Origin: an uncultured bacterium
GTDB taxonomy: Bacteria > Patescibacteriota > Minisyncoccia > Phycocordibacterales > GWA1-40-21
DNA: 64,000 nucleotides
Assembly: GCA_963716205.1 (NCBI GenBank)
Contig: OY970290.1
Location: 584,823-648,822 of the forward strand
Reading direction: 5' to 3'
Positions within the stretch are counted from its first letter, which is position 1, and every line of letters starts with the position of its first letter. Below, in pieces: positions 2,055-49,116 of the stretch. The notes beneath the pieces were generated by a model. It saw only the letters and a list, made by a program, of their open reading frames with translations, searched no databases and was not told where the DNA came from. The position numbers were made by a program, and so were the translations under genes.

Positions 2055-2804
2055 TCAAACTTGAATTTTTTCAAAACAATAACCGCCAATCCATAAAAAT
2101 ACAAATGCAATCACTACGAGAACTATTGCATCGGTTCCCAATCCCAAATCATGGTAGCCGATATCGGAAAGAAGGACACGCAGCCCGTCAATGCCGTAAG
2201 TGAGCGGATCAATGCGGGAAATAATGGAAAGCCAATCCGGCAATCCCTGAAGCGGAAACAGCGCTCCGGAAAGAAAGAAAAGCGGCATGATAATAAAATT
2301 GATAATGAGCGAAAAAGCCTGCATATCATCAAGGAATGAGGCAATCACGGTGCCGAAAGACGCAAAAATAAGCGAAATAAAAAACATGATCACTACTGCG
2401 GGAAAAACCCACAGCCAATTTACCGGCTGGAAGCCGAAGAGAACCGCTATGACAAATACTATGCTGCCTTGGATGGTGGCGACGGTCGCACCACCAAGCG
2501 TTCGGCCGAGCATAACATCAAGACGCGACATCGGGGCGACGAGCGTTTCTTTCAAAAATCCGAATTGACGATCCCAGATAACTTCCATGCCGGTAAAAAT
2601 TGCCGTAAATATAATGCTCATTCCGATGATGCCGGGAGCCAAATACGCAAGATAATTGCCTCCACCACCGCCAAATGATCCGCCGAAACCATAACCGAAC
2701 ATGAGCAGAAATACAATCGGCTGGGCAAGCGTTCCGATCAAGCGCGGCTTGGAACGCCAATATTTTTTTATTTGTCGGAGCCAAAGATAATAAATTTTTT
2801 TCAT
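2055..2804 (-). CDS. ABC-2 type transporter permease
   Basis: 249 aa polytopic membrane protein with a Gly-rich loop (GYGFGGSFGGGGGNY). It starts immediately downstream of the ABC ATPase gene. Confidence 0.7.
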   Translation of the reverse strand: MKKIYYLWLRQIKKYWRSKPRLIGTLAQPIVFLLMFGYGFGGSFGGGGGNYLAYLAPGIIGMSIIFTAIFTGMEVIWDRQFGFLKETLVAPMSRLDVMLGRTLGGATVATIQGSIVFVIAVLFGFQPVNWLWVFPAVVIMFFISLIFASFGTVIASFLDDMQAFSLIINFIIMPLFFLSGALFPLQGLPDWLSIISRIDPLTYGIDGLRVLLSDIGYHDLGLGTDAIVLVVIAFVFLWIGGYCFEKIQV

Positions 2805-2816
2805 GGCTATTGAATT

Positions 2817-3602
2817 TTATCTTCCGTGCATTCTCTGCATTGTCCTCATTTGATCAGTAGAGCTGGCTTCCTCATCACGAATAGTCTTGCCGGTAAGTGC
2901 AAGATACGCATCCTCGAGAAAAGTGGTATTTGTTCTTTTTTTGAGTTCATCCGAAGTGCCGACGGCAACTATTTTGCCGTGATCAATGATGACAATACGC
3001 GTTGCAATTCTGTCGGCTTCTTCCATTTGATGCGTAGTGAGAAAAATTGTCATTTTTTCAGTTTTATTGAGTTGTTGCAATCGATCCCACATCAGACTTC
3101 TGGTCTGGGCGTCAAGACCGATGGTCGGCTCGTCCAAAAATAATATTTTTGGATCGTGCAAAAGCCCCCGTGCAATTTCAAGCCTGCGTTTCATTCCTCC
3201 TGAAAATGATTTGACGACGCTGTCTCTGCGCTCCCACAAATCGACAAATTTTAGCAATTCTTCGCTCCGTGCCTTTCGTTCTGCATCGGGAACATCATAG
3301 AGAACTCCGTGCAAATCCATATTTTCCCATGCGGTGAGATCGTCATCAACGCTTGGATCTTGAAAAACGATTCCAAACGTCCGGCGCGCCTGTTCAGGCT
3401 GGCTCACCGGATCAATATTGTTCAATCGAATGGTCCCAGAATTTGGATGAAGAAGCGTTGTGAGCATTTTTACTGTCGTGGTTTTTCCCGCGCCGTTCGG
3501 ACCGAGAAAAGCGAATACTTCGCCGTCATTTACCGTGAACGAAATATTATCCACTGCTATGAGATCGCCGTATTTTTTCGTCAAATTACTTACTTCAATC
3601 AT
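2817..3602 (-). CDS. ABC transporter ATP-binding protein (DrrA-like)
   Basis: Walker A GPNGAGKTT, an ABC signature variant FSGGMKRRLEIARGLL, Walker B ILFLDEPTIGLD and an H-loop. Confidence 0.85.
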   Translation of the reverse strand: MIEVSNLTKKYGDLIAVDNISFTVNDGEVFAFLGPNGAGKTTTVKMLTTLLHPNSGTIRLNNIDPVSQPEQARRTFGIVFQDPSVDDDLTAWENMDLHGVLYDVPDAERKARSEELLKFVDLWERRDSVVKSFSGGMKRRLEIARGLLHDPKILFLDEPTIGLDAQTRSLMWDRLQQLNKTEKMTIFLTTHQMEEADRIATRIVIIDHGKIVAVGTSDELKKRTNTTFLEDAYLALTGKTIRDEEASSTDQMRTMQRMHGR

Positions 3603-3678
3603 GCATTTTATTCTATCATTTTTTTATAAAACAAAATATTGCCCTCTCGAGCAATATTTTGTTATTGACGTTACTTGT

Positions 3679-3748
3679 TGCGGAGGTCGGAATCGAACCG
3701 ACAATCTTCAGGTTATGAGCCTGACGAGCTACCGTTGCTCTACCCCGC
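3679..3748 (-). tRNA. tRNA-Met (anticodon CAT); elongator-type or Ile2-lysidine type cannot be distinguished
   Basis: Reverse complement gcggggtagagcaacggtagctcgtcaggCTCATAAcctgaagattgtcggTTCGATTccgacctccgca. The anticodon stem tcagg/cctga flanks loop CUCAUAA, and there is a T-loop TTCGATT. It lacks the initiator signatures (no C1:A72, and only two G-C pairs at the anticodon stem base). The acceptor pairing is imperfect by hand folding. Confidence 0.65.
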
Positions 3749-3789
3749 TATTCAGGTATATTACAACAAAAAATGAGAAAATGCAATAT

Positions 3790-4386
3790 TTATATAATCT
3801 CAAATTCTTTAAATACTTTTTGATATAAATTAATCACACGTTTCGCTTCTCTTTGATTAATCAGAAAATCTGATCCTTCATGAGCAATTGCATTTCGTAT
3901 TTTATGTGCTTCCCATGCTTCCTCAATGGTTGAAAAATCATCAGTATTAACGGCTTTTAATTTATCGCCGATGCTATCTCCCGGCAAATTGAGCGTATCA
4001 AGAAGTTCTGAAAGAATGATATCCGCTTCAATAATTGCAAGCTTCCATTTATTCGCATCATCTGAATCAATATGATCCTGAACAAGTTTCCATTTTGGAT
4101 TTTCCAATTCTCCCGGACCGGATACACTCTCCATCGCGCCATCTGTCGGAAGAATTTTTGCTATCGACTGTTCGCGCAATTTATTGAATCGTATCGCATA
4201 CAAAACGATGACGATAATCATCGCGATTGAAAAAAGAAAAGCGAAAATAGCGTATTTTGCAAAAAAATTGATGGCATAAAACTGCGCACTGCTGACAAAC
4301 TGCGCACTCGAACTGCCGAAAACAAGATCATGTAGACCTTGAATCAAAGTGACAAGATCAAAAGATTGGGGCGTTGCGGCGTTCAT
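3790..4386 (-). CDS. membrane-anchored hypothetical protein with C-terminal HEPN-like helical domain (Rx4H motif)
   Basis: 198 aa with one N-terminal TM helix (AIFAFLFSIAMIIVIVLYAI). The C-terminal helical region carries WEAHKIRNAIAHEG, an R-x4-H spacing like HEPN and DUF4145-type domains. Confidence 0.35.
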   Translation of the reverse strand: MNAATPQSFDLVTLIQGLHDLVFGSSSAQFVSSAQFYAINFFAKYAIFAFLFSIAMIIVIVLYAIRFNKLREQSIAKILPTDGAMESVSGPGELENPKWKLVQDHIDSDDANKWKLAIIEADIILSELLDTLNLPGDSIGDKLKAVNTDDFSTIEEAWEAHKIRNAIAHEGSDFLINQREAKRVINLYQKVFKEFEII

Positions 4387-32017: not shown

Positions 32018-32912
32018 ACATACACGCTATTTGAGCCGCGCGATCGATAAAAGGCGACTCTATTCCTGCATATTCACTCGGTTCGAGTCGTGGACTTTCA
32101 GATCGTATACCATTCATTGTTTCGTCAATCAGCAAGAACGGTTTGAGCAATACAGCGCTTAGTTTTTTGTCCTTCAGTGTCCAGTTCGAGACAAAATACT
32201 CGACTATCTTTTTTTGGCTTATAAGGTCTCCTTTTTTAAACCACATCTTGGAATGATGGGCAAAAACAAAGATATTTTTTAGGGAGTCTTCCCAGTTTTC
32301 CTCTCGGCCTTTTGCCTTTTTCATCCACTTTAGGGCCTCGTCCCGTTCCGTTTCCAGTTTCTTTCTCCGGTCCAAATATTCCTTGTCGGTAATTAGTTCA
32401 CGAATTCTCATATCTGTAAGGACCTCTATAGATTTTTGGGCTTTGTCATGAACTCCTTCGAGGTTCCCCATCCTAACCTTAAGGGTTTCATTATCCGTTT
32501 GCCGAATACGTTCAATCCCTTGGCGCACCCAGAATACGAAGCGTTTCGGAATATGAATTCGTTCCAAGAAGTCAGCAATTTGAGCTTTTAGACTTGGAAG
32601 GGTGATCGAAGATTGAGAACACTTGTTCTTGCCCTTCTTATTTGTGCAGTGATAATAGGTGTAGGAACGAGTTTCACCAGTACCCTTGATGAGTTTTGTT
32701 TTTTCTTCCGCCGTAACCATGTAACCGCATTCCCCGCAACGAATGGTTCCCGTGAAAGCGAATTCGTGGGTCTTGGGGCGAGGCTTTCCTTCGCGCCCTA
32801 GAATTTCCTGCACCCAGTCAAATTCATCTTGCGAGACCAGGCGCTTATATTTATGGGGATATGCTTCCCCTTTTCTTTTCATAAGACCGCAATAGAATGG
32901 GTTTGTGAACAT
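31977..32912 (-). pseudogene. large serine recombinase remnant: C-terminal recombinase tail, zinc beta-ribbon and coiled coil only; no resolvase catalytic domain
   Basis: ...NPFYCGLMKRKGEAYPHKYKRLVSQDEFDWVQEIL... then IRCGECGYMVTAEEK...YTYYHCTNKKGKNKC (zinc ribbon) and a coiled coil. The ORF 3' end overlaps the tmRNA 3' end by about 40 nt (stop at 31977, tmRNA ends 32017). No in-frame catalytic domain exists upstream. Confidence 0.5.
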
Positions 32913-32926
32913 CTTATAACGATAAC

Positions 32927-33208
32927 GTGGGGAAAGAAAAGAAGAACGATTTGGTATATGAATATGATCTTCGATACATGCTATCAACCCGAGAAGGCAT
33001 GTTAGCCCGAGATTTGGCTGAAGGATTAAACGACAAAAAAAGTCTCCGTTTTTACTTCTCGATGGCCTTGGAACACTCAGAGAAATATTTGAGAGAAATC
33101 TACCGCAAGACCATGGAGACACCAGAACATAAGATTAAAAAATCTCGTGGAGCACTCTTTTCTTACCTCATAAAAAAGTATGAACACTTTGACACTATTG
33201 ACTATTGA
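32927..33208 (+). CDS. hypothetical protein
   Basis: 93 aa ORF. It occupies the position where the recombinase N-terminus would be, on the other strand. Confidence 0.25.
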   Translation: MGKEKKNDLVYEYDLRYMLSTREGMLARDLAEGLNDKKSLRFYFSMALEHSEKYLREIYRKTMETPEHKIKKSRGALFSYLIKKYEHFDTIDY

Positions 33209-33647
33209 TCCAGGTGCTAGATTCTGGGGAGTCTCTGTTTTTCACGGGAGAAACTTCAACATCTCCTTTATAAAGAAGCTTTCTACAAAAGCTTCTCCTA
33301 GAAACAGACTCTGCAAGACCAGGAGGTTATTTCTCACCCTTTGCAAGAAGTATGGTCCCGACATCCTCATCATTGAAAAACCCTATAAATTCTGGGAAAA
33401 GCAATCCCAATATCTAGGAAGGATCATTGGAGAGATAAAACGGCTTGCTAGGAAGGAGCGAATAAAAGTGATCGAGTATTCTCCTAGAACTGTCCGGAAA
33501 GTGGTCTGTAATGATAAAAATGCAACTAAAGAGGGTATAGATGATGCCGTCTGTAGGTTCTATCCAGAGTTAAAGACGTACCTAAATGAGAGCCGAAACT
33601 ACAATGACAAATATTGGGGTCGCATGAAAGTCTTGTGGAACAACTAA
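33180..33647 (+). CDS. RuvC-like Holliday-junction resolvase (phage/mobile-element type)
   Basis: 155 aa. LLTIDPGARFWGVSVF matches the RuvC motif (I)LGIDPG..G. ...ILIIEKPY... carries the catalytic Glu, and ...VIEYSPRTVRKVVCNDKNATKEGIDDAV resembles the RuvC helix region. Confidence 0.55.
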   Translation: MNTLTLLTIDPGARFWGVSVFHGRNFNISFIKKLSTKASPRNRLCKTRRLFLTLCKKYGPDILIIEKPYKFWEKQSQYLGRIIGEIKRLARKERIKVIEYSPRTVRKVVCNDKNATKEGIDDAVCRFYPELKTYLNESRNYNDKYWGRMKVLWNN

Positions 33648-33994
33648 TGATTGAACAACGACTTGGCGAAGGTCAAGGCTTGGACGGGTGTTTAAATGTT
33701 TACAACAAACTAATAGATTTAGATGATTTATCAACAGCTTTAATTTTCGATTACATCATGGCCGACGAAGTTAATCACGTGGAACGTGGAAATTATTGGA
33801 TTAGATATCTGCTTAAAGGAAATGAGGTAGCAATACAATCCTTGGAAGCGCGAACACGTATAAAATTATTGAAATTGGGTTTGGATCTTTCCGTTCCAAT
33901 TCCAGTGAACGTTCGCGGGCGTCGTCTCGCCGGGTTCACTGATGAAGAAATCAGTAAATGCCAAACAGCGGAATTTGACACCCAACAATATTGA
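33647..33994 (+). CDS. hypothetical protein, translationally coupled to the RuvC-like gene (TAATG overlap)
   Basis: 115 aa, ...IMADEVNHVERGNYWIRYLL... Confidence 0.3.
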   Translation: MIEQRLGEGQGLDGCLNVYNKLIDLDDLSTALIFDYIMADEVNHVERGNYWIRYLLKGNEVAIQSLEARTRIKLLKLGLDLSVPIPVNVRGRRLAGFTDEEISKCQTAEFDTQQY

Positions 33995-34064
33995 CAAAAG
34001 ATCGAATTTAACAATAATACTTTTATTACTAATTATTTTAAAATAAACAGAAGGGGTAAAAAAA

Positions 34065-34238
34065 TGAAAGCTAAATCTTCCGCGGTGAAAAAAAAAGTTA
34101 ATCCTTCCAACTTAAAGTTCTTAACTCATGTTTCTAAATTGACGAAAGCATTACAGTCAAACAATCGTGAAGCAGAAAAAATAATTAAGCAATTAAAAGC
34201 CCTTCGTCCCTTCCCCATGCCAAGCACCTGGTAGTCAA
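34065..34238 (+). CDS. small hypothetical protein with strong RBS
   Basis: 57 aa (MKAKSSAVKKKVNPSNLKFLTHVSKLTKALQSNNREAEKIIKQLKALRPFPMPSTW), preceded by AAGGGG 7 nt upstream. It is below the ORF-track length cutoff. Confidence 0.25.
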
Positions 34239-34297
34239 GGACTGTTTGCCCCAGGACTTCGACAATAGGCCTTCCCAAAATTTTAGGTGGTGAACAA

Positions 34298-35026
34298 TTA
34301 TTCTTTTTCAAGAATAGCAACGTAGGAAGAACCTGCAGAAGTTAAAATATTTTTTATTTTCCAACCGGTTCCTTTCACAATATTTTTCATTTCGTTTTTT
34401 GAAACTAATAGGTAATTAAACCAATCACCGATATAGTTTTCGAATCGGACTCGTATTCGAAGTTGGCCTGCCATTCGTCCCCTCCTTTTGTTCAATTTAA
34501 GATATGACAAATGTGCGGAATTACTTGTTTTATATGGGTCATTGCTTTCAGCAATAATAAAAGCTTCTGGTTTAGTGATTTTATAAATGGCTTTTAATAA
34601 GGATTTAGCTTTTTTAAAACTCCCAAACAAACCAAAGTTGTTGCCGTACATGACAATCGTATCAAATGAATTTCTTTGGAGAGTATGAATCTTTTCAATT
34701 GGAAGAACCTGCGTTTTTGTTATGCCCCTTGCTTTGCATACTTTAATTGCGAGAGGTGAGTTATCTATCGCTGTGACATCGAGACCTTTTCTTTGAAGAT
34801 ATAGCGCAACTCTTCCCGCGCCGGTGCCCACATCAAGAATTCTTCCCTTGGCAAATACTATTGCTTTCTTCTGTTGAGTTGGCCAGTTTTTAAAATCTTG
34901 AAAATACGCTGGAGAACCCGTTGATAATCCAACATAACCATCATCTCGTTCGATGAGTTCGTAAGACTTTTTTCTTTTGAAATAAGCCCATATTTCTTGC
35001 CCATATGCATCTTTATCAAAATTCAT
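34298..35026 (-). CDS. class I SAM-dependent methyltransferase
   Basis: Motif I ILDVGTGAGRVALYL, plus acidic post-I and motif II. Confidence 0.7.
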   Translation of the reverse strand: MNFDKDAYGQEIWAYFKRKKSYELIERDDGYVGLSTGSPAYFQDFKNWPTQQKKAIVFAKGRILDVGTGAGRVALYLQRKGLDVTAIDNSPLAIKVCKARGITKTQVLPIEKIHTLQRNSFDTIVMYGNNFGLFGSFKKAKSLLKAIYKITKPEAFIIAESNDPYKTSNSAHLSYLKLNKRRGRMAGQLRIRVRFENYIGDWFNYLLVSKNEMKNIVKGTGWKIKNILTSAGSSYVAILEKE

Positions 35027-35376
35027 TATAAAAAAATATTATGAGGTCTGGTGTACTTGTTATTAAGCACCGCTCTCGTTAGCCGAATTGTACCTTTGTA
35101 ATGCCAGAATTGCAAATTCCTAACTGGTCACATTTAGTGCAATAATTATTATAAAAAAAACATCGGCATTCATTAAAATTGGGCAAAACAAGGTCCGTTC
35201 CAAAGTTATATATTTTTAAGTATTGTTCTTTCCATAATTTTTTTGTTTGAAACGAAACTAAATATTATGATGAAGTTCATTATGTAAAATAAAAAAGGAG
35301 GGCAATCTTATGGCAACTCTCAAAAAAGAAGTCATCGTTGGCTGTTATTGAAAATCCATCTTGAAAGGTGTCCGCC

Positions 35377-35862
35377 GTGAGAATCAAATATCTTGTTTTG
35401 GTTATTATTCTGTCAGTTTCAAACGCATTTGCTCAAGACGGTAATTCACAGGACGTTATTTATTTAAAAAATGGTCGCGTGGTAAAAGGAACGATTGTTG
35501 AAAAATCGCCCGGAGGGAAACTTACAATTCGGACTTGGAGTGGATACAAGTTCACTTATAAAAAATCGGAGATTAGTAAGATTGAAAAAGAAGAAACAGG
35601 GAAGGATGAAGAGCAGGCAGATCAAAACGAGTCAAAGCCAACCACTAAAAATCGGGGCCATGTAATCGATAATTTATACGGCGATTCAAAGTATTTTATC
35701 CAGGTTTCCCGGCACATTCAGAAATTCAGTTACTTGACTCCACCACCACCTACTCCCGTACCGCCGGTGTCACCGATTTGTTTCGATTTGGAGATAACAA
35801 TTCCCTTGGAGTTAAACTTTATTGTCGCGGATTGGGTATCTACTCCTGACCCGATGCCATAA
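35377..35862 (+). CDS. hypothetical secreted protein with Pro-rich tail
   Basis: Signal peptide MRIKYLVLVIILSVSNAFA. The C-terminal 40 aa overlap the convergent lipoprotein gene. Confidence 0.35.
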   Translation: MRIKYLVLVIILSVSNAFAQDGNSQDVIYLKNGRVVKGTIVEKSPGGKLTIRTWSGYKFTYKKSEISKIEKEETGKDEEQADQNESKPTTKNRGHVIDNLYGDSKYFIQVSRHIQKFSYLTPPPPTPVPPVSPICFDLEITIPLELNFIVADWVSTPDPMP

Positions 35863-36098
35863 ATTCCACTAGAAACCTTCGTAAATGAATAAATGAAACT
35901 CGATGTTCCATCTTCATTTTCCAATTCTTGATTGGGTGAACCGAGTAGCTCCACTACATCTTCCTTAGTACTTACACCTTTTTTGATTTGTGAATACGCA
36001 CTTTGGTCGATCTGATGGCCCAAAGTAGTTACGCACCCCGTTATAAGACTGCTTGCAAAAGAAAAAATTAGCGAACACAGAATAAATCTCCGTAACAT
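35730..36098 (-). CDS. lipoprotein, SmpA/OmlA (BamE)-like domain with Gly-rich tail
   Basis: MLRRFILCSLIFSFASSLITGC lipobox, then ...SKEDVVELLGSPN... Confidence 0.4.
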   Translation of the reverse strand: MLRRFILCSLIFSFASSLITGCVTTLGHQIDQSAYSQIKKGVSTKEDVVELLGSPNQELENEDGTSSFIYSFTKVSSGIYGIGSGVDTQSATIKFNSKGIVISKSKQIGDTGGTGVGGGGVK

Positions 36099-36258
36099 TA
36101 TTCGTCTCCTTTTCGAAGTTATATAAACCAAAGTTCTCAATTAAGAACCTTCAAGGACAAAAAGGGGCCTAAATATGTTCTTTTTTGAGAACCTTAATAT
36201 AGCAATAAAGTTCTTAGTTGAGAACGTTTATTTTCGTATTGATTTTAATAATGGGGGC

Positions 36259-36465
36259 ATGTCAATACATGCGAAACGAGTCTCGAAAAACCTGAGGAAA
36301 ATGATTGTTGATAGTGGTATGAGCGCAGAAAAAATTGCTCAAGGGGCAGGCATTTCTAAATCACAGATTTCCTACTACTTGAATAGCACTCGAACACCTA
36401 CCATTCAAACCTTAGAGAAAATATCGGATTTCCTGAAGCGGGATTTTCAGGATTTTTTCAGATAA
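36259..36465 (+). CDS. XRE-family helix-turn-helix transcriptional regulator
   Basis: MSAEKIAQGAGISKSQISYYLNSTRTPTIQTLEKISDFL, an HTH_3 pattern. It is convergent with the restriction-modification operon. Confidence 0.5.
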   Translation: MSIHAKRVSKNLRKMIVDSGMSAEKIAQGAGISKSQISYYLNSTRTPTIQTLEKISDFLKRDFQDFFR

Positions 36466-36472
36466 TAGAAGT

Positions 36473-37429
36473 TCAGTGTTTCGAATATGGCCCTAAGAAT
36501 CGGGTTCCATTGAAGTGAATCATGTGGGAAGGATTTTCCGCAACCCATACTTCGGTTTCCCACGCAATCACGGAGAGGTATTTCGTCATTATTGATTTCG
36601 TCGGGAACGCAGTCACAAACACGAGTCCTGCCGTGCAGCCTGAAAACATTTTCTTGAGTTCTTCATGCCGCTTGGCATCCATCGGTCCATGACTTGTTAC
36701 CGACTCCACGAGGACCAGCCAGTTTTTATCAGGATAATAAATTACAACATCAGGCATTTTCCCGTGGGAATCAACAGTAACACCGAGCTTCGCCAATGAC
36801 TTTTCATCAAAAGATGCCCACTTCTTACCAGTATCACCCACATAGACAACTTGAGCGCCGGGGACGAAACGAGAACCAAACTCTTCCACGATAGCCTTGA
36901 TAAGCTGGCTATGTTCCCCAGGACTTAGTTTGATCTCATTACCAGGAGTAATCTTTAAGGCTACTTGTTTCAAATCACGTTCTGCCGCATATTTTTTCGC
37001 CAACTCTGTTTTTATCAAAAGGTATTCTTTAACCTTTTTACTCCACCGCGAAGTGCCGTAACTTTTTACTAACTCAAACGCTTCCGGGGAAATCTGATAT
37101 ACCGCTTTGGGGCTATTTACCGAACGTTCAGGTTCATCGGGGTTATACATAGCAAGTCCAGCTTGGACAAATTGATGGATAGTAAAACGACGAAATGTCT
37201 CTCTGCTGTTGGGAGCATATTTTTTTCCATATGCCTTCAAACTAAAGTCCATCATGGGCGTAATGCCCATGAGTGGCGTAGATGCGTCCTTCCACTCCGT
37301 AGTTTTCTTTAGATTGAGCAAAGCCAAAAGGCAAAGTGCCGACCGCTCATTTATCTGTTCTTTCGGCATTCCAACTTCAGTGAGGATCTTTAACGCATCT
37401 TCGATATGTTCGTGTTGTTTTTTGTTCAT
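36473..37429 (-). CDS. type II restriction endonuclease (PstI/BsuBI-family-like, inferred)
   Basis: 318 aa. Its start overlaps the stop of the upstream DNA methyltransferase by 4 nt (ATGA). The size and N-terminal wHTH-like region fit the BsuBI/PstI family. The assignment rests mainly on context. Confidence 0.45.
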   Translation of the reverse strand: MNKKQHEHIEDALKILTEVGMPKEQINERSALCLLALLNLKKTTEWKDASTPLMGITPMMDFSLKAYGKKYAPNSRETFRRFTIHQFVQAGLAMYNPDEPERSVNSPKAVYQISPEAFELVKSYGTSRWSKKVKEYLLIKTELAKKYAAERDLKQVALKITPGNEIKLSPGEHSQLIKAIVEEFGSRFVPGAQVVYVGDTGKKWASFDEKSLAKLGVTVDSHGKMPDVVIYYPDKNWLVLVESVTSHGPMDAKRHEELKKMFSGCTAGLVFVTAFPTKSIMTKYLSVIAWETEVWVAENPSHMIHFNGTRFLGPYSKH

Positions 37430-38904
37430 TGGATTGATTTTACCATTTTATCAACATCTCCCTGATTAGCAGTTCTATTCGATTTTGCCATTTTGCCGAG
37501 AACTCTGAGCGCTTCAATCGGTGGATATTTCAAAGAGCGAAGATCGGTCGCATTTACTTGCGTATGTCCGTTGAATTCCCTGAAATATTTGTCAACACCA
37601 GATGAGTTCAAATACATCGTTAGACCCCGCGCTACATTTTCTTCAAGGCCTGTTTTCTTAATGTGAAAAACATTTAGATGGTTTTCAAAACCAAGTCTTT
37701 TGGCTTTAATTTCTTTGGGCGAAAGAAGAGCTGCGCTTATACGCTTTTTCTCCTCTTTGGAAGAAAACCTTTTTACCAAAACATAAAACCCTTTTGGAAA
37801 AAGCATTTTTTTCGTTTCATCGTCTAGTGAGATGGCATTAGATTTTCGGATCTCTTTTTTGGGCCATTTCACTGAGTTACCATCAAAGTGCGCTGGATAC
37901 AATAGTGGAGCATCACCTTTTAAAGGCATTTTGTGAAGATTGTCTTTTATACGAAAATCAACCACCGGCCCCGTCGATACTTCTATACCAATTTCTTTGA
38001 GACTACATTTGTCAGTATTCGAGTTTTCCAATGAATTCTTTTTGATTTCAGTAGGAATATGGATGAACGATTCCTCATCCAACGGATTAAGGATTTGTCC
38101 AATATCACATTTGAATTGTTTCAAGTCTGAAAATGAAGAGTCGGAAGATATTGAAATTAAAACTTCTTTTGAAATCCGTCCTTTAACCAAATGGAAAATA
38201 ACGTTTTCTTGAAGAACTCCGTCATCCTTGAATGCCCGTTTCCTTGAATCAAATAAATGAATAGTTTTAATCGCCGTTTTCTTAAGTAAAGATTTTCGAA
38301 ACGATCTGTAGTAAGGGCCGTTGCAAAAACTTCGAGGAATGATAACTACTAATTCGCCACCTTTCGCCATTTTATTTACTGCCACTTCTACGAAGGCAGA
38401 ATAAAGATTCACTGTCTCTATTCCCATTGTTCGAAGCATTTCTCTATGTTCAGAATCACTGTGAATTTTCTTGTAAGGAGGGTTTAGGATCGCATGAGTA
38501 TAGTTTGGTGATTCTGATTTCCATGAATTTCTTACCGCATCAACAATGAAATCATCGTTGTAAATTCGATATTCAAAACGACCATTGGATTTGTTCTTTT
38601 GAAAACTGTTAAAATTATTTTTGAGATACGCCGCTAAGTCGTTGTCTATTTCAAATGCATCAACATATATTTTGGGCTTTAGTCTCTTAAGAGAACTCCA
38701 TCTTTCAAGAAAAGCGAATGTTAAGGAACCGATACCTGCACCCGCATCAAGTAATTTGATTTCCCTATTGGTAAACTTGGAAAAAAGTGACGCCATGAAT
38801 GCGCCCACAGGAGCAGGTGTCATAAACTGACCAAGTGCCGACTTTACCACCGGGTCAAGTGCCTTAGAAACCTCTTGCCTTTTTTGGTCAACTATTTGGA
38901 GCAT
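37426..38904 (-). CDS. N6-adenine DNA methyltransferase, gamma class (M.PstI/BsuBI/Eco57I-like)
   Basis: Motif I LDAGAGIGSLT precedes motif IV NPPY (AILNPPYKKI), and a large C-terminal target recognition domain follows. Confidence 0.75.
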   Translation of the reverse strand: MLQIVDQKRQEVSKALDPVVKSALGQFMTPAPVGAFMASLFSKFTNREIKLLDAGAGIGSLTFAFLERWSSLKRLKPKIYVDAFEIDNDLAAYLKNNFNSFQKNKSNGRFEYRIYNDDFIVDAVRNSWKSESPNYTHAILNPPYKKIHSDSEHREMLRTMGIETVNLYSAFVEVAVNKMAKGGELVVIIPRSFCNGPYYRSFRKSLLKKTAIKTIHLFDSRKRAFKDDGVLQENVIFHLVKGRISKEVLISISSDSSFSDLKQFKCDIGQILNPLDEESFIHIPTEIKKNSLENSNTDKCSLKEIGIEVSTGPVVDFRIKDNLHKMPLKGDAPLLYPAHFDGNSVKWPKKEIRKSNAISLDDETKKMLFPKGFYVLVKRFSSKEEKKRISAALLSPKEIKAKRLGFENHLNVFHIKKTGLEENVARGLTMYLNSSGVDKYFREFNGHTQVNATDLRSLKYPPIEALRVLGKMAKSNRTANQGDVDKMVKSIQ

Positions 38905-39114
38905 TTGTTCTCATTTTTCTTAATTCTAATAATCATTACTTTATGCAGTTACCACAAGCGCAGATTAAGTATACATCTGTTTACCAAAATTCAAAATCTC
39001 ATTTCCAGAAGACTGACTCGATAATCCGACTTCAAAAACTCTTTGAATTCTTTCATCTCTCCTAGCCCTTTATTTTAGGTAATATACAATATAAGTTATG
39101 GCAGACTATCGAAT

Positions 39115-40627
39115 ATGACGATTCCAAATTACATCACGCCAATCACGAAGATCCACTCTACTTTCAAAGAAGCCAAAGGTTTTTTTGATACGTATGGGGG
39201 TATATCGATCTTTGATGACGAGCCGAGACTCGATGTTGTAGCTCTCACGCAAGGAAAGCGCAATCTCGTGGTAGGCGAGCCCGGTGTCGGTAAAAGCCTG
39301 TTGCTTCAGGTCGTCAAAGAACATCTTGATCAAGAGAAATATGCCACTGCCATCATTAGCCTTCGTGATCCAGATGCAATTAAACAAATAGACGAATTTT
39401 TGAATTCTCCTTTCCAAACCCAAAAAACCTTACTACTTGATGCACTCGATGAAGTTAAGGCGAACTTATTTCCATCGCTACTCCAAAAAATCGAAGACAT
39501 TTCTGCTAAATATCCGGACATTTCGATTTTTCTCTCCTGTAGGTGGGTATTCATCAGTCGATATACAAATTCATTTCCCGCATTTCGCTTCATCACAATT
39601 TCTCCTTTTACCCGCAGACAAGTAAAAATGTATCTCATTGGGTCTCCAATTTTTTGGTGATCCAACAGTCATTGACGAATTGCCCGATCTCACTAATTCG
39701 GAAGAACTGATACTCACAAGCCAATATAAGCGGTGGGAAGAAGAACAATCCAAAACTGCATCAAATAACACGGAAGAAACTGCTGAAGAGCTTTTGAAAG
39801 AATTTCGTACTTTACTTGAACCCGAACCGGGAAAATTTAAAACTAATGTGTTTCAATTCTACAATAGACATTCGAATGAAATTACTTCACGACTTACAGA
39901 TAATGATCGCGAGCGAATTATAAATCTTCTTTCAAATACAGTTTTTAAATTCATGGACCCAGGCCAATACGGTATCACAATCACTTCAGAAAAAAACGGT
40001 TCACACACTTTCACCGTAGCTGACACGATACATATTTTTGGTGATGCAATCGTGACCGCGGAACACATCGGAATGAACATAACTCCCTTTCGACAACAAA
40101 TTCTCAATTTCATACCGTTTACATTTGGAGATAATCTGACCACCATCTTTAATTTGGTGAAAAACATTCGGCCCGAAGAAATGACACCCATTATTGAAGT
40201 TTATCGAAAACGTCATTCAGATTTGTGGCGGCATAACCCCCATAGTTTTGTTAAAGCTGTGGAGCAGTATCACATCTCAGAAGCCATACCTGTTTTGAAA
40301 ACCTTGATATTTGAATCAAAATGGGAAATGCAAGTTAGAAATGCCGCCTTACCAGTGATCGATTCCCTTGCACCAGATATAGATTTTCTTAGACAAGTCG
40401 TCGCAAGGTACAAAGATAGTACAGATAACGAAGAGAAAAAATTAGCAGACATCGCGAATGGTTTGCTCATTACTAACTATGCTGATGCTGACGCAGTGCA
40501 TTGGCGTTTAAAAAAAATCGTTGAGCGAGCAGCCGCCTTCATTAAGCCGAGAGGACCGCACGCGCATATGGTAGGCGGCTTGGAGGAAGAAATTTCATTT
40601 GGAAAGACATTTGCAAAACCGTTATAG
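39115..40627 (+). pseudogene. STAND/NACHT-like P-loop NTPase, split by a +1 frameshift in a T6 run (39650-39655) into a 181-aa NTPase part and a 329-aa C-terminal part
   Basis: Walker A VVGEPGVGKSLLL, Walker B LLLDALDEV, and a sensor-like SCR. ORF1 ends ...IGSPIFW*. ORF2 continues in the +1 frame from a TTG. Deleting one T fuses them into a protein of about 510 aa. Confidence 0.45.
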
Positions 40628-40815
40628 ATAATGCTGGAGCTAAAAACATGATCGGCATCAAAGAAGCTTTCCAAAACATAAAAGGTGTATGGGTTTTGTC
40701 GTTTAACTGCCACGATAGTGTGACAGCCCAAAAGAAGAAAAAGGTCCTAAAAACAAAAAAACGAGCTGACCATACCGGTCAGCGTAGAAAGAAGTAGCAT
40801 ATTCGAGTGTAGATA

Positions 40816-41325
40816 CTATCTTTCGTCCACTACTCGAAATTTTCTAGGTATATCAGATGGTCGTGCATATCGTTCGGAACGTGGACCATTTACGGTTTCA
40901 TCTAACGCCTTTGCGCCAGGTCTCGTTCCCCGTCTTTCAAGAGCGTTAATCTTTTTCGCTTGTTCCCTAATCCTGACGAACGAAAGATTTATCTCGATGT
41001 GCGTGCCTTTGTCATTCCTGCATGAATAGGAATCATAGATAAATTTCTTGTCAAAATACGGATATAAAATACGATAAATCACATGATGCAGAAGTCTGTC
41101 TCGCACGACCGCCTTGTGTATGCTTCTCGGTTTCGGATCGTTGATAGCAAATGCTTTATAGCCGGAATGAACGTATGTTTTGTTTTTCAAATCATCATGC
41201 AGACTTGCAATATTTTTTGAGAGTTGAAGCGCATATTCTGCCACATCATTTTTATATCGTTTGTCAGAAACAAATTCCCGCCATGCTTGGTGAATATTTG
41301 TCAGAGATATGATAGTATCGTACAT
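40816..41325 (-). pseudogene. DGR-type reverse transcriptase, N-terminal fragment (motifs 1-2 only; no YxDD)
   Basis: MYDTIISLTNIHQAWREFVSDKRYKNDVAEYALQLSKNIASLHDDLKNKTYVHSGYKAFAINDPKPRSIHKAVVRDRLLHHVIYRILYPYFDKKFIYDSYSCRNDKGTH follows the DGR/retron RT pattern (...FRDRVVHHAL...SYACRKGKGTH). After this point the ORF diverges and stops, and a terminator hairpin lies at 40758-40782. Confidence 0.6.
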
Positions 41326-41360
41326 GTTGGAAAAAATACTATACCACAAAAATACCATGA

Positions 41361-41732
41361 ATGTTGCCCCCCCCCCGCAAATCGCCAGTTGTCGTTGCAA
41401 AAGAAAAAGAAGCGTATCAATTTTGGCTTAGTCTCCACAGAAATTTTCCCAAGTCTGAACGCTTTGGTATCGGACAGAAAATAGAAAATACGTTTTTAGA
41501 CATTTTAGAATATAGCTTTGCATCAGTGTATCTGTCGCCGGAACCGAAAATTATCTTGCTCACAAAGACAATATCAAAACTAGATACCTTGAAATTCTTT
41601 GTTCAGCTTGCTTGGGAAAGTAAACTGATACCGGAAGAAAAATACATTGAATTTTCTGAAAAATTAGAGGAAATTGGAAAAATGCTCGGCGGATGGAAAC
41701 GCGGATTGCAACAAAAAACTCCCGCCAAATAG
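41361..41732 (+). CDS. avd: Avd-like four-helix-bundle protein (DGR accessory variability determinant)
   Basis: ...FPKSERFGIGQKIENTFLDILEYSFASVY... and ...KLDTLKFFVQLAWESKLIPEEKYIEFSEKLEEIGKMLGGW match the four-helix-bundle (23S rRNA IVS protein / bAvd) family. It sits between the TR and the RT gene on the opposite strand. A C10 run lies at 41367-41376, right after the start codon. Confidence 0.55.
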   Translation: MLPPPRKSPVVVAKEKEAYQFWLSLHRNFPKSERFGIGQKIENTFLDILEYSFASVYLSPEPKIILLTKTISKLDTLKFFVQLAWESKLIPEEKYIEFSEKLEEIGKMLGGWKRGLQQKTPAK

Positions 41733-41750
41733 ACGGGAGAAAATGAATGA

Positions 41751-41866
41751 GTTTCGGAACCACGATCCGATGCCTGTTCTCGGCATTCCAGACGTTGTCG
41801 TTCGACAAACGATTGACGTTCACGTTGAGCCCATCGGAGTTCACGTTCACGTTCGCCACGAAATTT
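41751..41866 (-). repeat. DGR template repeat (TR), 116 nt
   Basis: Near-identical to 42204-42319. On the minus (sense) strand it encodes NFVANVNVNSDGLNVNVNRLSNDNVWNAENRHRIVVPKL with 10 AAY Asn codons. Confidence 0.7.
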
Positions 41867-42199
41867 TGTGCAATGTTCCTCCTATTCCACCATCCGCCAA
41901 ACCATGACAGATTGTATCTTATGCGGGACCTCAAAGTCCTCTGAAATATTGCACCAACTTTATTTATTTTTATAAGATATCCGTATCATCCACTCTTTTA
42001 CAAGACGTATCCGGTAAAATTCTCAAACGATACAGACATGCAATTGCAGTCTCAAGCCGTAGCCGGAGACATCTAGAATTGCTTTTTCATTATATATGAA
42101 AAATAAAAAATTAAAATAAAAAACCCCTCGATCCTGCTTGCGCAAAATCGAAGGGTCAAAGTGTCCAAGTCCCAAAGGGACAAGAACGAAGTGTTGAAG

Positions 42200-42922
42200 T
42201 TACAGTTGCGGAACCACGACCCGAGGCCTGTACCCGGCATCCCAGACGTAGTCGTAAGACAAACGAAAGACGTGCACGTAGAGCCCATCGGAGTACACGT
42301 CCACGTCCGCCACGAAATAATCCTTCCCAACTTTGAAGAGGAAGAAAGTTCCGTAACCATCGGTACGAAGCCACTTGGCGTGCTTCTTGCAGAACTGCTT
42401 GATCTGGGCCTGAGTCAGACACAGACGATCGAGGTTTTCTCCAAAACTTCCGAAGATCGCCTTGAAGTCGCCGTCCTGCGTCATCTCAAACACGTGGGTT
42501 TTCACCCGCTTGGTCGCTTCAGCCGGAACATCAAGACCCCAGTTTTTGAAGTCGGAGTCGATATAATCGGGGAAAACGTCCTTGGCGTTCGCGATAGTTT
42601 CCGTGCCGTCTGTCGGATCAAGAACGGTGTCCTTGCCGAGAGAAATGCACGTGAGATGGCTGGTTTTGAGCTCGATGGATTCGGCAAAGAATTTTTCCAT
42701 CGCATCCTCGATCGCCGAATTGAGCTTGCCATCCGCTTGAATCCGCTGAACAGCCGATCTGTCGAGGGCTTTCGAAAACTTGCTAACCGCCCTCTTTACC
42801 CCTCTTCGTCCGGCTTTCTCGCCCCGACTCACGAGATCCTTCATCTGCTCGGATGTAATCAATGACTTAGCCATTGTTATCATCCTCCTTTTCTGAATTT
42901 TACTTCGCGTGGTTTTCACCAC
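42200..42922 (-). CDS. DGR target protein; VR at extreme C-terminus (CLec/FGE-like tail ...GYRPRVVVPQL)
   Basis: 240 aa. The last 38 aa (YFVADVDVYSDGLYVHVFRLSYDYVWDAGYRPRVVVPQL*) are encoded by the VR. Confidence 0.55.
   Translation of the reverse strand: MVKTTRSKIQKRRMITMAKSLITSEQMKDLVSRGEKAGRRGVKRAVSKFSKALDRSAVQRIQADGKLNSAIEDAMEKFFAESIELKTSHLTCISLGKDTVLDPTDGTETIANAKDVFPDYIDSDFKNWGLDVPAEATKRVKTHVFEMTQDGDFKAIFGSFGENLDRLCLTQAQIKQFCKKHAKWLRTDGYGTFFLFKVGKDYFVADVDVYSDGLYVHVFRLSYDYVWDAGYRPRVVVPQL
42204..42319 (-). repeat. DGR variable repeat (VR), 116 nt
   Basis: 17 mismatches against the TR. 16 of them lie at positions where the TR sense strand has A. Confidence 0.7.
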
Positions 42923-43271
42923 AGCTTTGAATTGACCTGTTGGATCAGCTCAAAGCTGTAGTGAAATACAACTGTTTTTAAGGTTCTTATCTACTTACAA
43001 TTGTACACCTTTTTAATATATCTGTCAAGAATAGCTATACTCCCTTAGAAATAAGCTAGATTTGGCTATGATACTACATATTTTTTCAGATCCGGAATAT
43101 AAATATACCTATTCTCTTCCTGAAAAATCGTACGGACTGCCATCACGGTGTCCCACATTAAAAAATAAACTCATATTCATAAATATGAGTTTATTTTTTT
43201 AAAATCTTGACACCAATATAATATATGTGTTAGTATTCTAACAAGTTGCTCTTACAAAAAAGGAGAACCGC

Positions 43272-43505
43272 ATGTCTATTCACACAGGTCAGCTCATCAA
43301 GACAACTGAAACACTTGGGGATTTGAAAAATGCCCATGTTGCAGAAAAACATATTCGAGCTCGCACACCGAATTGTTTTGGAACCGTATTTTCTGAACGG
43401 CCAAAGGAAAGGCTTGTCTATGTTAAACATGTAAACAAGCCTGATCTCGCCGTGTATGAACGCGGTGAATTATCTTCAGCCGAACAATTTTTGCAGGTTT
43501 CTTAA
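43272..43505 (+). CDS. hypothetical protein
   Basis: 77 aa. A TTGACA-17-TGnTAGTAT promoter-like element lies at about 43206-43240 and a terminator follows. Confidence 0.3.
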   Translation: MSIHTGQLIKTTETLGDLKNAHVAEKHIRARTPNCFGTVFSERPKERLVYVKHVNKPDLAVYERGELSSAEQFLQVS

Positions 43506-43519
43506 GAAATAAGCCCTGC

Positions 43520-43556
43520 AAAAAACCGCCCGACACAATGTCCGGCGGTTTTTTAT
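43520..43556 (+). terminator. Rho-independent terminator
   Basis: accgcccgaca-caat-gtccggcggt followed by a T-run. Confidence 0.55.
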
Positions 43557-43674
43557 TATATTTTTCATTACGTAAGGGAAAAATAAGAATATCCACAGCT
43601 ATTGACAATATTAATATAATGATATAAAATATAAATAAAGCTGTTCTTCGTAAATTTAAAAAACGAGGTGGAGT

Positions 43675-44388
43675 GTGAAAAACATTTTCATGCTGTTCCT
43701 GCTGACGTTTAGCGTTTTGTCCACCGGCTGCATTTATAGAGTGGTCTATGGACCAAGAGTCTATGACATTTATGGACAAGACACTCCTGCTGCCGCGAGA
43801 ATTCGTTTTTATCAGCAACATCCAGAATTTAAGGATGATGTGATAGATGATGGAATAACGGGCATTGTGCCGGGACCAAATGGCTGGATAATTAGTCATC
43901 ATAAAAAAGATGCTAGTCCTGCCGTTCCCCGTCCTCAAAGCTTAAAGCCTGCAGTTAAAGCTAGAGAATGGGTAAATGTTCCTGATGGATATTTTCAGCC
44001 GCCGCTCGATGGTCCAATTGAAATCAATTGGAAAAAAGGACTTCATGGCAAGGGAAACACCGGCTATGATTTGTTCGCCAAAAAAGGATCGCGTGTCAAA
44101 TCGTCGGCTGCCGGCAAAGTAATTGTTGCATCAACGGGATGGAATGATGGATCGGGATATTTGATCCGGATTTTACATCCGAATGGAACCATTACGGCTT
44201 ATTGCCACCTTTCCCAAATTGATGTTTGGAAAGGACAAGAAGTTTTCCAAGGACAAACCATAGGACTCTCTGGAAACAGCGGAAACGTAAGCAGTGATTG
44301 CGGTGGAGATGGATCTCACCTGCATTTTGCGGTTTACTATACGGAAAATCCAGCTCCAAAATGGGAGTCGCGTTACGCTTCTCGTTAA
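43675..44388 (+). CDS. M23-family peptidase lipoprotein
   Basis: Lipobox LSTGC, LytM motifs ...HxxxD... and SHLHFAV. Confidence 0.7.
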   Translation: MKNIFMLFLLTFSVLSTGCIYRVVYGPRVYDIYGQDTPAAARIRFYQQHPEFKDDVIDDGITGIVPGPNGWIISHHKKDASPAVPRPQSLKPAVKAREWVNVPDGYFQPPLDGPIEINWKKGLHGKGNTGYDLFAKKGSRVKSSAAGKVIVASTGWNDGSGYLIRILHPNGTITAYCHLSQIDVWKGQEVFQGQTIGLSGNSGNVSSDCGGDGSHLHFAVYYTENPAPKWESRYASR

Positions 44389-47742: not shown

Positions 47743-49116
47743 TCAATCAAGCTCCACACTCTCTCCATATTCCGGATATTCGGCTTTCACATCAAGCTCA
47801 TCACGCAGGCGCTGGACCAAAAATAATGAGGATTTCGGCTCGCCCATGACCGTAAAAACTTTCTTCAAATCCCCGCCTTTTGCCGCATCTTCGACAAATG
47901 AGACGAGGTGGTCAGAATCTTTGTGCGAAGAATATCCTTCAATCTTTGCAATTTTTGCCTTCACAATAATTTCTTCATTATCTATTTTGACCATTTTGGC
48001 TCCGTCTTCAAGCTGTCTGCCCAAAGTTCCCGTCGCTTGGTATCCGACAAGCAGTATCGTGGCGCTCGCATCTCCCGCATGATCTTTTTCATGCTGGACA
48101 ATTCTTCCGCCGTTTGACATTCCGCTTCCCGCCATAATGATTTTCGGATTCGGCGTCTCATCTATTTTTTTCGATTCCCACACCATCGGCGTATCTTTTA
48201 ATTTGGGAAATTTGAATACGTCATCTCCCGTTTTTATTTCGTCGCGTACTTTTTGATTCAAATAGCTTTTGTATTTTTCATAGATGCCCGTCACCTTGAT
48301 AGCAAGCGGCGAATCGAGAAATACCGGAATTTGTTTGACTTCTTCATTCATGAAAAATTCATTCATTTCGTAGAGCATCATCTGGGTGCGCTCGACGGAA
48401 AACGATGGGATGATCAGAAGTTTTTTGTTTGCAATCGTATCGGAAATTACATCTTTCAATTCTTTTCGTCTTTGATCTTTTGGCTCGTGATTGCGGTCGC
48501 CATACACGCTTTCCATAATAATATAATTTGCATCCGTAATTTGTTCCGTGTCATTCAAAAGAAGCGATGGAGAATTACCGAGATCTCCGGTAAAGACCGC
48601 TTTTATTTTCCCATCGCTGACTTCCACCATTGATGCGCCGAGAATATGTCCGGCATCGCGCAAATAAATGGAAACTCCGGCATCAAGAGCAAAATGTTCG
48701 TGATACGGCAATGTATTCCACAGCGTCATAGCCATTTCCAAATCTTTTTTCTCAAAAAGTGAAAGTGTGCCGTCTTTTCTCGCCTCGCTTTCCAAAATTC
48801 CGAGCGTATCTTCCAAAAGAAGCTCTGCGATTTCTTTTGTCGGCGGAGTGCTGAAAATTTTTCCGCGGAAACCCTCCTTCACAATCTTCGGTATCCTGCC
48901 GATATGATCAATATGTGCATGCGTGATGATGAGAAAATCTATTTCGCTCGGCTGATAAGGAAACGGCGCCTGATTAAATCTGTGGGCGACATCCGTTCCC
49001 TGCATCATGCCGCAATCAATGAGAAGTTTGATATTTTTCCCGCTTGCATCCGTATGCTCCACCAGAAAATTCGCCCCCGTCACCGAACCCGTTCCGCCGT
49101 AAAAAGTTACTTTCAT
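47743..49116 (-). CDS. MBL-fold beta-CASP hydrolase, RNase J-like (lacks long C-terminal domain)
   Basis: HAHIDH motif, plus beta-CASP Asp/His motifs. 457 aa. Confidence 0.6.
   Translation of the reverse strand: MKVTFYGGTGSVTGANFLVEHTDASGKNIKLLIDCGMMQGTDVAHRFNQAPFPYQPSEIDFLIITHAHIDHIGRIPKIVKEGFRGKIFSTPPTKEIAELLLEDTLGILESEARKDGTLSLFEKKDLEMAMTLWNTLPYHEHFALDAGVSIYLRDAGHILGASMVEVSDGKIKAVFTGDLGNSPSLLLNDTEQITDANYIIMESVYGDRNHEPKDQRRKELKDVISDTIANKKLLIIPSFSVERTQMMLYEMNEFFMNEEVKQIPVFLDSPLAIKVTGIYEKYKSYLNQKVRDEIKTGDDVFKFPKLKDTPMVWESKKIDETPNPKIIMAGSGMSNGGRIVQHEKDHAGDASATILLVGYQATGTLGRQLEDGAKMVKIDNEEIIVKAKIAKIEGYSSHKDSDHLVSFVEDAAKGGDLKKVFTVMGEPKSSLFLVQRLRDELDVKAEYPEYGESVELD

Follow-up and report, generated by a model that had tools for sequence, protein, structure and literature searches.

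The locus considered here raises a simple question: do two overlapping reading frames on the forward strand encode one NTPase whose frame is switched in a homopolymer run, two small proteins, or the remains of a single larger gene? In the window (the whole stretch of DNA that was analysed, 64,000 nucleotides with a GC content of 42%), ORF A (39115-39660, 181 aa) carries the motifs GEPGVGKS, LLLDALDEV and FLSCRW and ends in ...SPIFW at a TGA (39658-39660), and the +1 frame, open from 39626, holds ORF B (39638-40627; TTG start, 329 aa). The change of frame must fall within 39626-39660, where the open frames of ORF A and ORF B overlap, and this interval contains a run of six thymines (T6; 39650-39655, forward strand), at which a preliminary description of the locus had placed the frame switch. 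That description agrees with the window sequence on both ORFs, on Walker A and Walker B, on the SCR motif, on the ...SPIFW end and on the position of T6, but the register changes at 39644/39645 instead, and it is very likely that 39115-40797 is a pseudogene of one NACHT-type STAND NTPase gene of ~1,300-1,350 codons that was broken by three deletions, with T6 uninvolved.

Sequence features of the two reading frames

The first ORF encodes a recognisable nucleotide-binding core. Its Walker A motif (GEPGVGKS, aa 54-61 of ORF A) conforms to the pattern GxxxxGK[ST], and G53, E54, P55, G56, G58 and K59 of this motif are invariant in 22 relatives. The Walker B motif (LLLD-A-L-D-E-V) fits the NACHT signature D[GAS]hDE, with D108, D111 and E112 invariant across relatives. 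When one T is removed from the run, the window sequence does yield a single ORF, as had been proposed, with a computed length of 503 aa (~510 aa in the preliminary description). However, this fused product is not a restored protein, because it still falls ~790 residues short of its relatives, and the missing residues include the entire nuclease core as well as the winged helix of the NACHT module. Searched against Pfam, it gave only weak P-loop matches, all within aa 44-130 (NPHP3_N at 25.9 bits and NACHT at 21.6 bits, as well as AAA_16 and AAA_22), and it fell below the gathering threshold of the NACHT family PF05729 (21.6 versus 26.7 bits). The helical domain and winged helix found C-terminal to the AAA+ core in the NACHT clade are absent from the relic, as are the features of a PD-(D/E)xK nuclease (an alpha/beta core with conserved acidic residues and an ExK motif).

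An undeleted allele and the position of the frame change

A Logan contig of 4,654 nt from run ERR11523671 (L017) provides a base-exact comparison. It is the contig of P0017, a 399-aa protein that shares a 90% cluster with ORF A. L017 positions 1-1681 are 100% identical to window 37964-39644, the next 1,018 nt (1682-2699) are absent from the window, 2700-2767 are identical to 39645-39712, a further 612 nt (2768-3379) are absent, and 3380-4291 are identical to 39713-40624. From 4292 onward L017 departs from the window, running on as ...KPL/MDLKREGFED... to its end where the window continues ...CCGTTA/TAGATAATGC. The retained sequence shows zero substitutions relative to L017 in 2.6 kb, and the deleted blocks were found nowhere in the entire 64-kb window.

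T6 is also present in L017, where it is in frame: 'TCTCCAATTTTTTGGTGATCC' encodes Phe-Phe within ...ALQFFGDPTVIDELPDL..., and the codons around the run (GCT CTC CAA TTT TTT GGT GAT) read A L Q F F G D, as part of ALQFFGDP. The run therefore consists of native TTT TTT codons of the ancestral frame and is not a site of mutation, and the frame switch is attributable to a deletion of 3n+1 length at 39644/39645. Of the explanations offered previously for the frameshift, pseudogenisation is borne out by the three deletions, while phase variation and a sequencing error in the run both fail because T6 has its native length.

L017 is itself open for 1,168 codons apart from a 1-nt frame break at ~nt 2295 (...CAGTTGGTTGAGTTC^CAGGACTACGG...), which lies outside any homopolymer and where the family consensus reads LVEF-SGLR.... 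Either the gene had already ceased to be functional when the deletions occurred, or the break is a base error in the contig. L017 is the sole undeleted comparator and ends before the right side of the third junction (J3), so the estimates for the size and microhomology of the third deletion draw on more distant relatives and on the point at which a second contig begins (L019, see below).

Segments and junctions of the relic

When homologues were compared with the window by tblastn, they matched in four collinear pieces with differing reading registers: window 39130-39639 (register 1) matched reference aa 2-171, 39638-39712 (register 2) matched a HEAT-like motif of ~25 residues near reference aa 520-540, 39713-40624 (register 2) matched P0003 aa 249-549, and 40621-40743 (register 1) matched the extreme C-terminus of the family (P0008 aa 396-436). 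Placed on the complete relative P0019 (1,359 aa), the pieces correspond to aa 1-178, 523-543, 732-1054 and 1298-1328. About 570 of ~1,340 codons are left and ~790 codons are gone. The two ORFs of the preliminary description thus stand as open frames, but the scars at 39712/39713 and 40624/40625 and the tail at 40621-40797 had been missed.

Segment A (39115-39644, forward strand) comprises ancestral codons 1-177, is 100% identical to L017 1152-1681 and shares 64% identity with P0004 aa 2-171 by tblastn. It covers the nucleotide-binding core of the NACHT module, with Walker A GEPGVGKS, Walker B LLLDALDEV and a sensor-1-like SCR, and stops at the first junction (J1; 39643-39646, breakpoint 39644/39645), where L017 1-1681 is joined straight to L017 2700 onward, 5 bases upstream of T6. 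This 1,018-bp deletion has a 2-nt microhomology (TC) at its joint and removed everything past the fifth strand of the nucleotide-binding core, namely the helical domain, the winged helix and the next helices (ancestral aa 178-516). The TGA at 39658-39660 is an out-of-frame stop that ORF A reaches because the J1 deletion put it in register, and the locus reads as two ORFs because the same deletion put the downstream sequence out of frame.

The second piece, segment B (39645-39712, forward strand; L017 2700-2767), is a mere 68 bp of the HEAT-like region (...LQFFGDPTVIDELPDLTNSEELI) that includes T6 and matches P0009 aa 516-540 and P0003 aa 20-44 by tblastn. It ends at J2 (39711-39714, breakpoint 39712/39713), where L017 2767 is joined to 3380 by a 612-bp in-frame deletion with a 2-nt microhomology (TA), at the cost of 204 codons of the repeat region. 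Segment C (39713-40624, forward strand; L017 3380-4291) makes up most of the 329-aa ORF B and comprises ancestral codons ~744-1047, the helical stretch that connects the HEAT-like repeats with the nuclease domain; its identity with P0003 aa 249-549 and with P0002 aa 34-337 is 47-50%.

At the third junction (J3; 40621-40627, breakpoint 40624/40625) identity with L017 stops at 40624, L017 reading ...CCGTTA/ATGGATCTTAAG where the window diverges as given above. Relatives have ~248 more residues between FAKPL and the C-terminal tail, and the deletion is accordingly estimated at ~750 bp, with a putative 4-nt microhomology (GTTA). It creates the TAG stop of ORF B (40625-40627), shifts the frame again and removed ~250 codons, including the nuclease residues D203, E217 and K219. 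What follows is segment D (40621-40797, forward strand), the surviving native C-terminus (VIDNAGAKNMIGIKEAFQNIKGVWVLSFNC...KK and stop), which lies out of the ORF B frame and corresponds to the final strand(s) of the nuclease domain and a basic tail. Segment D matched P0008 aa 396-436 (E = 6.6e-7), P0002 aa 585-614 and P0003 aa 798-829 by tblastn; a scan of metagenome contigs for the 3' tail returned no match.

The parent family

An exhaustive profile search recovered 475 representatives at 50% identity. Among the 150 best of these, 89 are single proteins of 1,300-1,400 aa (the median of long members is 1,347 aa), so that the relatives do not conserve the two ORFs as separate genes, an arrangement that would have spoken against a split gene. 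With the reconstructed L017 protein as query there were 323 matches, and nearly all of the best 120 were single proteins, 1,317-1,451 aa long, that aligned over 95-99% of the query. Homologues of the fused product matched either the N-terminal third or the C-terminal two-thirds, and reached up to 640-840 aa on short contigs. Two loci in which a member appeared split lend no support to a natural two-gene form: the split in L015 is a scaffold N-gap, and the three frame changes in L016, which has full residue coverage, are most likely long-read indel errors.

In full-length members, a NACHT module at the N-terminus is followed by HEAT-like helices and, at the C-terminus, by a domain of restriction-endonuclease fold with an invariant D...ExK. 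Their first 530 aa adopt a fold similar to those of NLRP3, NLRC4 and NOD2, with NLRP3 and NLRC4 as the best matches. P0004 (30.8 bits) and P0022 (29.2 bits) pass the Pfam NACHT threshold (PF05729, 26.7 bits) and others fall below it. Together with the fit of DALDE to D[GAS]hDE, these results uphold the original assignment of the locus to the STAND/NACHT-like P-loop NTPases. HEAT_2 matches occur in the middle region, one of them above threshold (P0031, 34.3 bits). The C-terminal 297 aa were modelled with a pLDDT of 81, and E166, E193, D203, E217 and K219 of this domain are invariant in 20 diverse members; a PDB sequence search with the C-terminal profile gave no match, and the domain was therefore studied by fold comparison. 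Precomputed Pfam labels assign DUF8371 (PF28130) to most full-length relatives and to the C-terminal fragments P0002, P0003 and P0008, which places the ancestral gene in DUF8371, a family that is catalogued but uncharacterised.

The family may travel with integrated elements, as two of the three relatives' loci that were examined lie at mobile-element edges and one lies among housekeeping genes. In L020/L021 a full-length member at such an edge sits beside a serine recombinase and a ParB-methyltransferase, and in L024 another sits beside a terminase large subunit and two N6/N4 methyltransferases. Searches with P0289 gave no match in a phage collection and only two distant Arcobacter matches in a plasmid collection, and a scan of genome contigs with the N-terminal alignment, run on generic P-loop patterns, returned only distant Streptomyces and MAG NTPases.

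By analogy with characterised systems, the intact family would act in antiphage defence or abortive infection as a sensor of the NLR type. PADLOC and NCBIfam defence models gave only sub-threshold partial matches to the family, and the genomic context, with restriction-modification genes in the window and the mobile-element edges in L020 and L024, is at most suggestive of an antiphage role.

Genomic neighbourhood

Upstream of the relic is an apparently intact PstI/BsuBI-type type II restriction-modification system (36175-38904), consisting of a controller-like HTH protein (36175-36465, forward strand), an endonuclease (36473-37429, reverse strand) and an Eco57I-type methyltransferase (37426-38904, reverse strand), the latter two being full-length matches to PADLOC models. 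The restriction-modification genes of the preliminary description are thus confirmed, but the retroelement that it reported beside them is a diversity-generating retroelement (DGR) and not a defence retron.

The DGR (40816-42922) lies downstream, 20 bp from the relic. Its template repeat (41750-41864, reverse strand) and variable repeat (42204-42318, reverse strand, at the 3' end of a 240-aa ORF at 42200-42922 on the same strand) differ by 16 mismatches in 115 nt, 15 of which fall at template adenines. The bAvd gene (41361-41732) is on the strand opposite to the repeat, the reverse transcriptase and the target, an unusual layout. The truncated reverse-transcriptase ORF (40816-41400, reverse strand) has only 194 aa, of which the first ~135-150 residues are RT-like, and the DGR is therefore probably dead. 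Within the 3' tail of the relic, a terminator-like hairpin (GCTGACCGGTATGGTCAGC) with a T run behind it (40765-40783, reverse strand) is oriented so that it would terminate the convergent reverse-transcriptase gene.

Elsewhere in the window, a 457-aa beta-CASP metallo-beta-lactamase nuclease (47743-49116, reverse strand) reached 292 bits with aCPSF1 and 410 bits with the NCBIfam model 'type VII CRISPR-associated Cas14', for which the cut-off is 800. An RNase J/CPSF-like enzyme with a housekeeping role is a more probable identity for it than a CRISPR component.

Authenticity of the junctions

Among named organisms, the nearest matches to EF-G (78-87% identity) come from Candidatus Paceibacterota, Parcubacteria and Minisyncoccia MAGs, which puts the host in the Patescibacteria (Paceibacterota). 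The genome is probably a metagenome-assembled Patescibacteria contig, and the deletions could in principle have arisen by mis-assembly of a gene that is intact in the organism. A second assembly bears on this. In run ERR11563597, one Logan contig (L018) is identical to window 32889-39672 over 6,784 nt and spans J1, and another (L019) is 100% identical to window 40621-44352 and begins exactly where the J3 microhomology does. Support from this assembly thus covers J1 and the right side of J3, and J2 is seen in the window assembly alone. L018 ends with the last 31-mer that holds the last J1-specific base (39642), that is, at J1 +30 nt. Breaks placed exactly at J1 (+30 nt, k = 31) and J3 fit branching of a k = 31 graph at these junctions, which suggests that ERR11563597 contains other alleles besides the deleted one, and assemblers can produce chimeras where more than one allele is present. 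Against an artefact, J1 recurs in the independent assembly, microhomologies of 2-4 nt are far too short to mislead a k-mer assembler, and the deleted blocks do not reappear in any other part of the window. We therefore regard an intact gene hidden by mis-assembly as very improbable.

Origin of the deletions and alternative readings

The favoured explanation remains a pseudogene produced by three deletions in a gene whose product would have combined a NACHT STAND NTPase, HEAT-like helical repeats and a C-terminal PD-(D/E)xK domain. In STAND NTPases generally, ligand binding leads to oligomerisation and activation of an effector. By analogy, a ligand of the intact protein would bind the helical region, prompting ATP-dependent oligomerisation of the NACHT module and activation of the C-terminal nuclease. 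Of the three deletions, numbered along the gene, the non-3n one of 1,018 bp took the NACHT module's helical and winged-helix portion, the second, of 612 bp, removed further sequence in frame, and the third, of ~750 bp, took the nuclease catalytic core and made the TAG stop. The relic would accordingly be devoid of sensor-nuclease activity. Joints of 2, 2 and ~4 nt are consistent with ordinary illegitimate (microhomology) recombination, which presumably struck a gene that was already dispensable, and possibly already frameshifted, in a streamlined Patescibacteria genome. Slow neutral decay would not usually leave three large deletions and not a single substitution, a combination that counts against this explanation.

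Two other sources of the deletions were considered and rejected. Slippage between direct repeats finds no basis in the imperfect repeats at J1 and J2, which are no better than expected by chance (P = 0.62 and 0.035), and self-restriction by the neighbouring PstI-like enzyme would require a CTGCAG site, of which there is none in the relic or the undeleted allele.

It is also conceivable that the locus is a functional, minimised two-gene derivative that produces a 181-aa P-loop protein and a 329-aa helical protein, for example as a decoy or regulator. Both ORFs are open, the promoter-proximal part and the native start codon are intact, and the lack of substitutions relative to L017 would fit continued function, but very recent events would equally leave none. 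The last residues of ORF A are out of frame, and translation of ORF B would have to begin at a TTG within foreign-frame sequence. No cluster of comparably short proteins was found among the homologues: ORF B is a singleton in the clustering and had no record in an exact look-up, and the 90% cluster of ORF A contains ORF A and the longer L017 product and nothing else. In STAND NTPases, a nucleotide-binding core stripped of its helical and winged-helix domains is not known to work as a unit on its own. A two-gene derivative is thus very unlikely.

Equally slight is the chance that the three deletions arose together in a single event through a template-switching polymerase, for example if the DGR reverse transcriptase had copied the gene's mRNA with jumps at microhomologies and the shortened cDNA had then recombined into the chromosome. 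All three scars lie in one transcription unit of which both ends are kept, there is no other difference from L017, the microhomology at the joints is short, and the DGR is close at hand. Moreover, the left breakpoints of J2 and J3 both fall at TA/ATGGA in register (L017 2761-2774 and 4285-4298), a sharing with P ~0.007 for five random breakpoints, assessed post hoc, which hints at a non-random process. However, the adenine-specific substitutions expected from a DGR reverse transcriptase are missing from the retained segments, the reverse-transcriptase ORF is truncated, DGR enzymes are template-specific, and sequential deletions fit without any extra assumption. If true, a cDNA origin would be a bacterial analogue of retro-processing, polymorphic in a natural Patescibacteria population.

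Finally, slippage or phase variation at T6 that toggles a ~500-aa STAND NTPase is extremely unlikely: the run does lie inside the 35-nt overlap of both open frames and the loss of one T does fuse them, but T6 is alike in the window, L018 and L017, where it encodes Phe-Phe in frame, the register changes 5 nt upstream at the joint of the 1,018-bp deletion, and the fused product, without winged-helix part and nuclease, has an architecture found in no relative.

Implications

Read as a pseudogene, the locus should be annotated as one feature (39115-40797) and not as two hypothetical proteins or a phase-variable defence gene. It illustrates how a homopolymer within an ORF overlap can mislead, and how a near-identical undeleted allele settles the question. 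It also records, to the base, how a large NLR-like gene is being lost from an ultra-small Patescibacteria genome, with the undeleted allele in another sequencing run and other alleles probably co-occurring with the deleted one in the same run. Independent of the window, the parent family (NACHT, HEAT-like helices and restriction-endonuclease fold; DUF8371; 475 clusters) is a modest lead towards an antiphage sensor.

Comparison with known antiphage systems

The parent family resembles the Avs/AVAST systems in that a repeat sensor and a nuclease-type effector accompany a STAND-type NTPase, and the two are expected, by analogy, to work alike, with ligand-triggered oligomerisation activating the effector. 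In contrast to Avs, the domain order of the parent family is reversed, with the effector C-terminal, and the Walker B signature and fold matches favour the NACHT clade over the Avs clades. The AVAST-like membership suggested in the preliminary description is not supported: the PADLOC Avs2 model matched the window product at 13.4 bits (E = 0.0028) in the P-loop region only, and no PADLOC Avs model matched five full-length relatives.

Closer in size are HyoA (NF058534) and EruA (NF058535), the antiphage NACHT proteins of NCBIfam (1,318-1,430 aa). The relatives match them locally at the P-loop, and P0019 also matches the C-terminal ~70 residues of HyoA (E = 1.5e-10). However, the relatives score 29-54 bits against equivalog cut-offs of 1,200 and 1,000 and thus belong to a different family. 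A literature search on the two names found no paper describing HyoA or an antiphage EruA.

The bNACHT proteins are defined by a NACHT module with Walker B D[GAS]hDE, have restriction-endonuclease-type effectors among those listed, and bear their enzymatic domains chiefly N-terminally (Kibby et al., bioRxiv 10.1101/2022.07.19.500537). In contrast, the nuclease of the parent family lies at the extreme C-terminus, and its NACHT module starts at ~residue 45 with no N-terminal effector; the copy in the window, a relic, has kept no more than the nucleotide-binding core and some of the helical region. The parent family is nevertheless like the bNACHT proteins in that DALDE fits D[GAS]hDE, in the HEAT-like repeat helices C-terminal to the NACHT module, in possessing a restriction-endonuclease-type domain, and in the NLRP3-, NLRC4- and NOD2-like fold of the relatives' N-terminal 530 aa.
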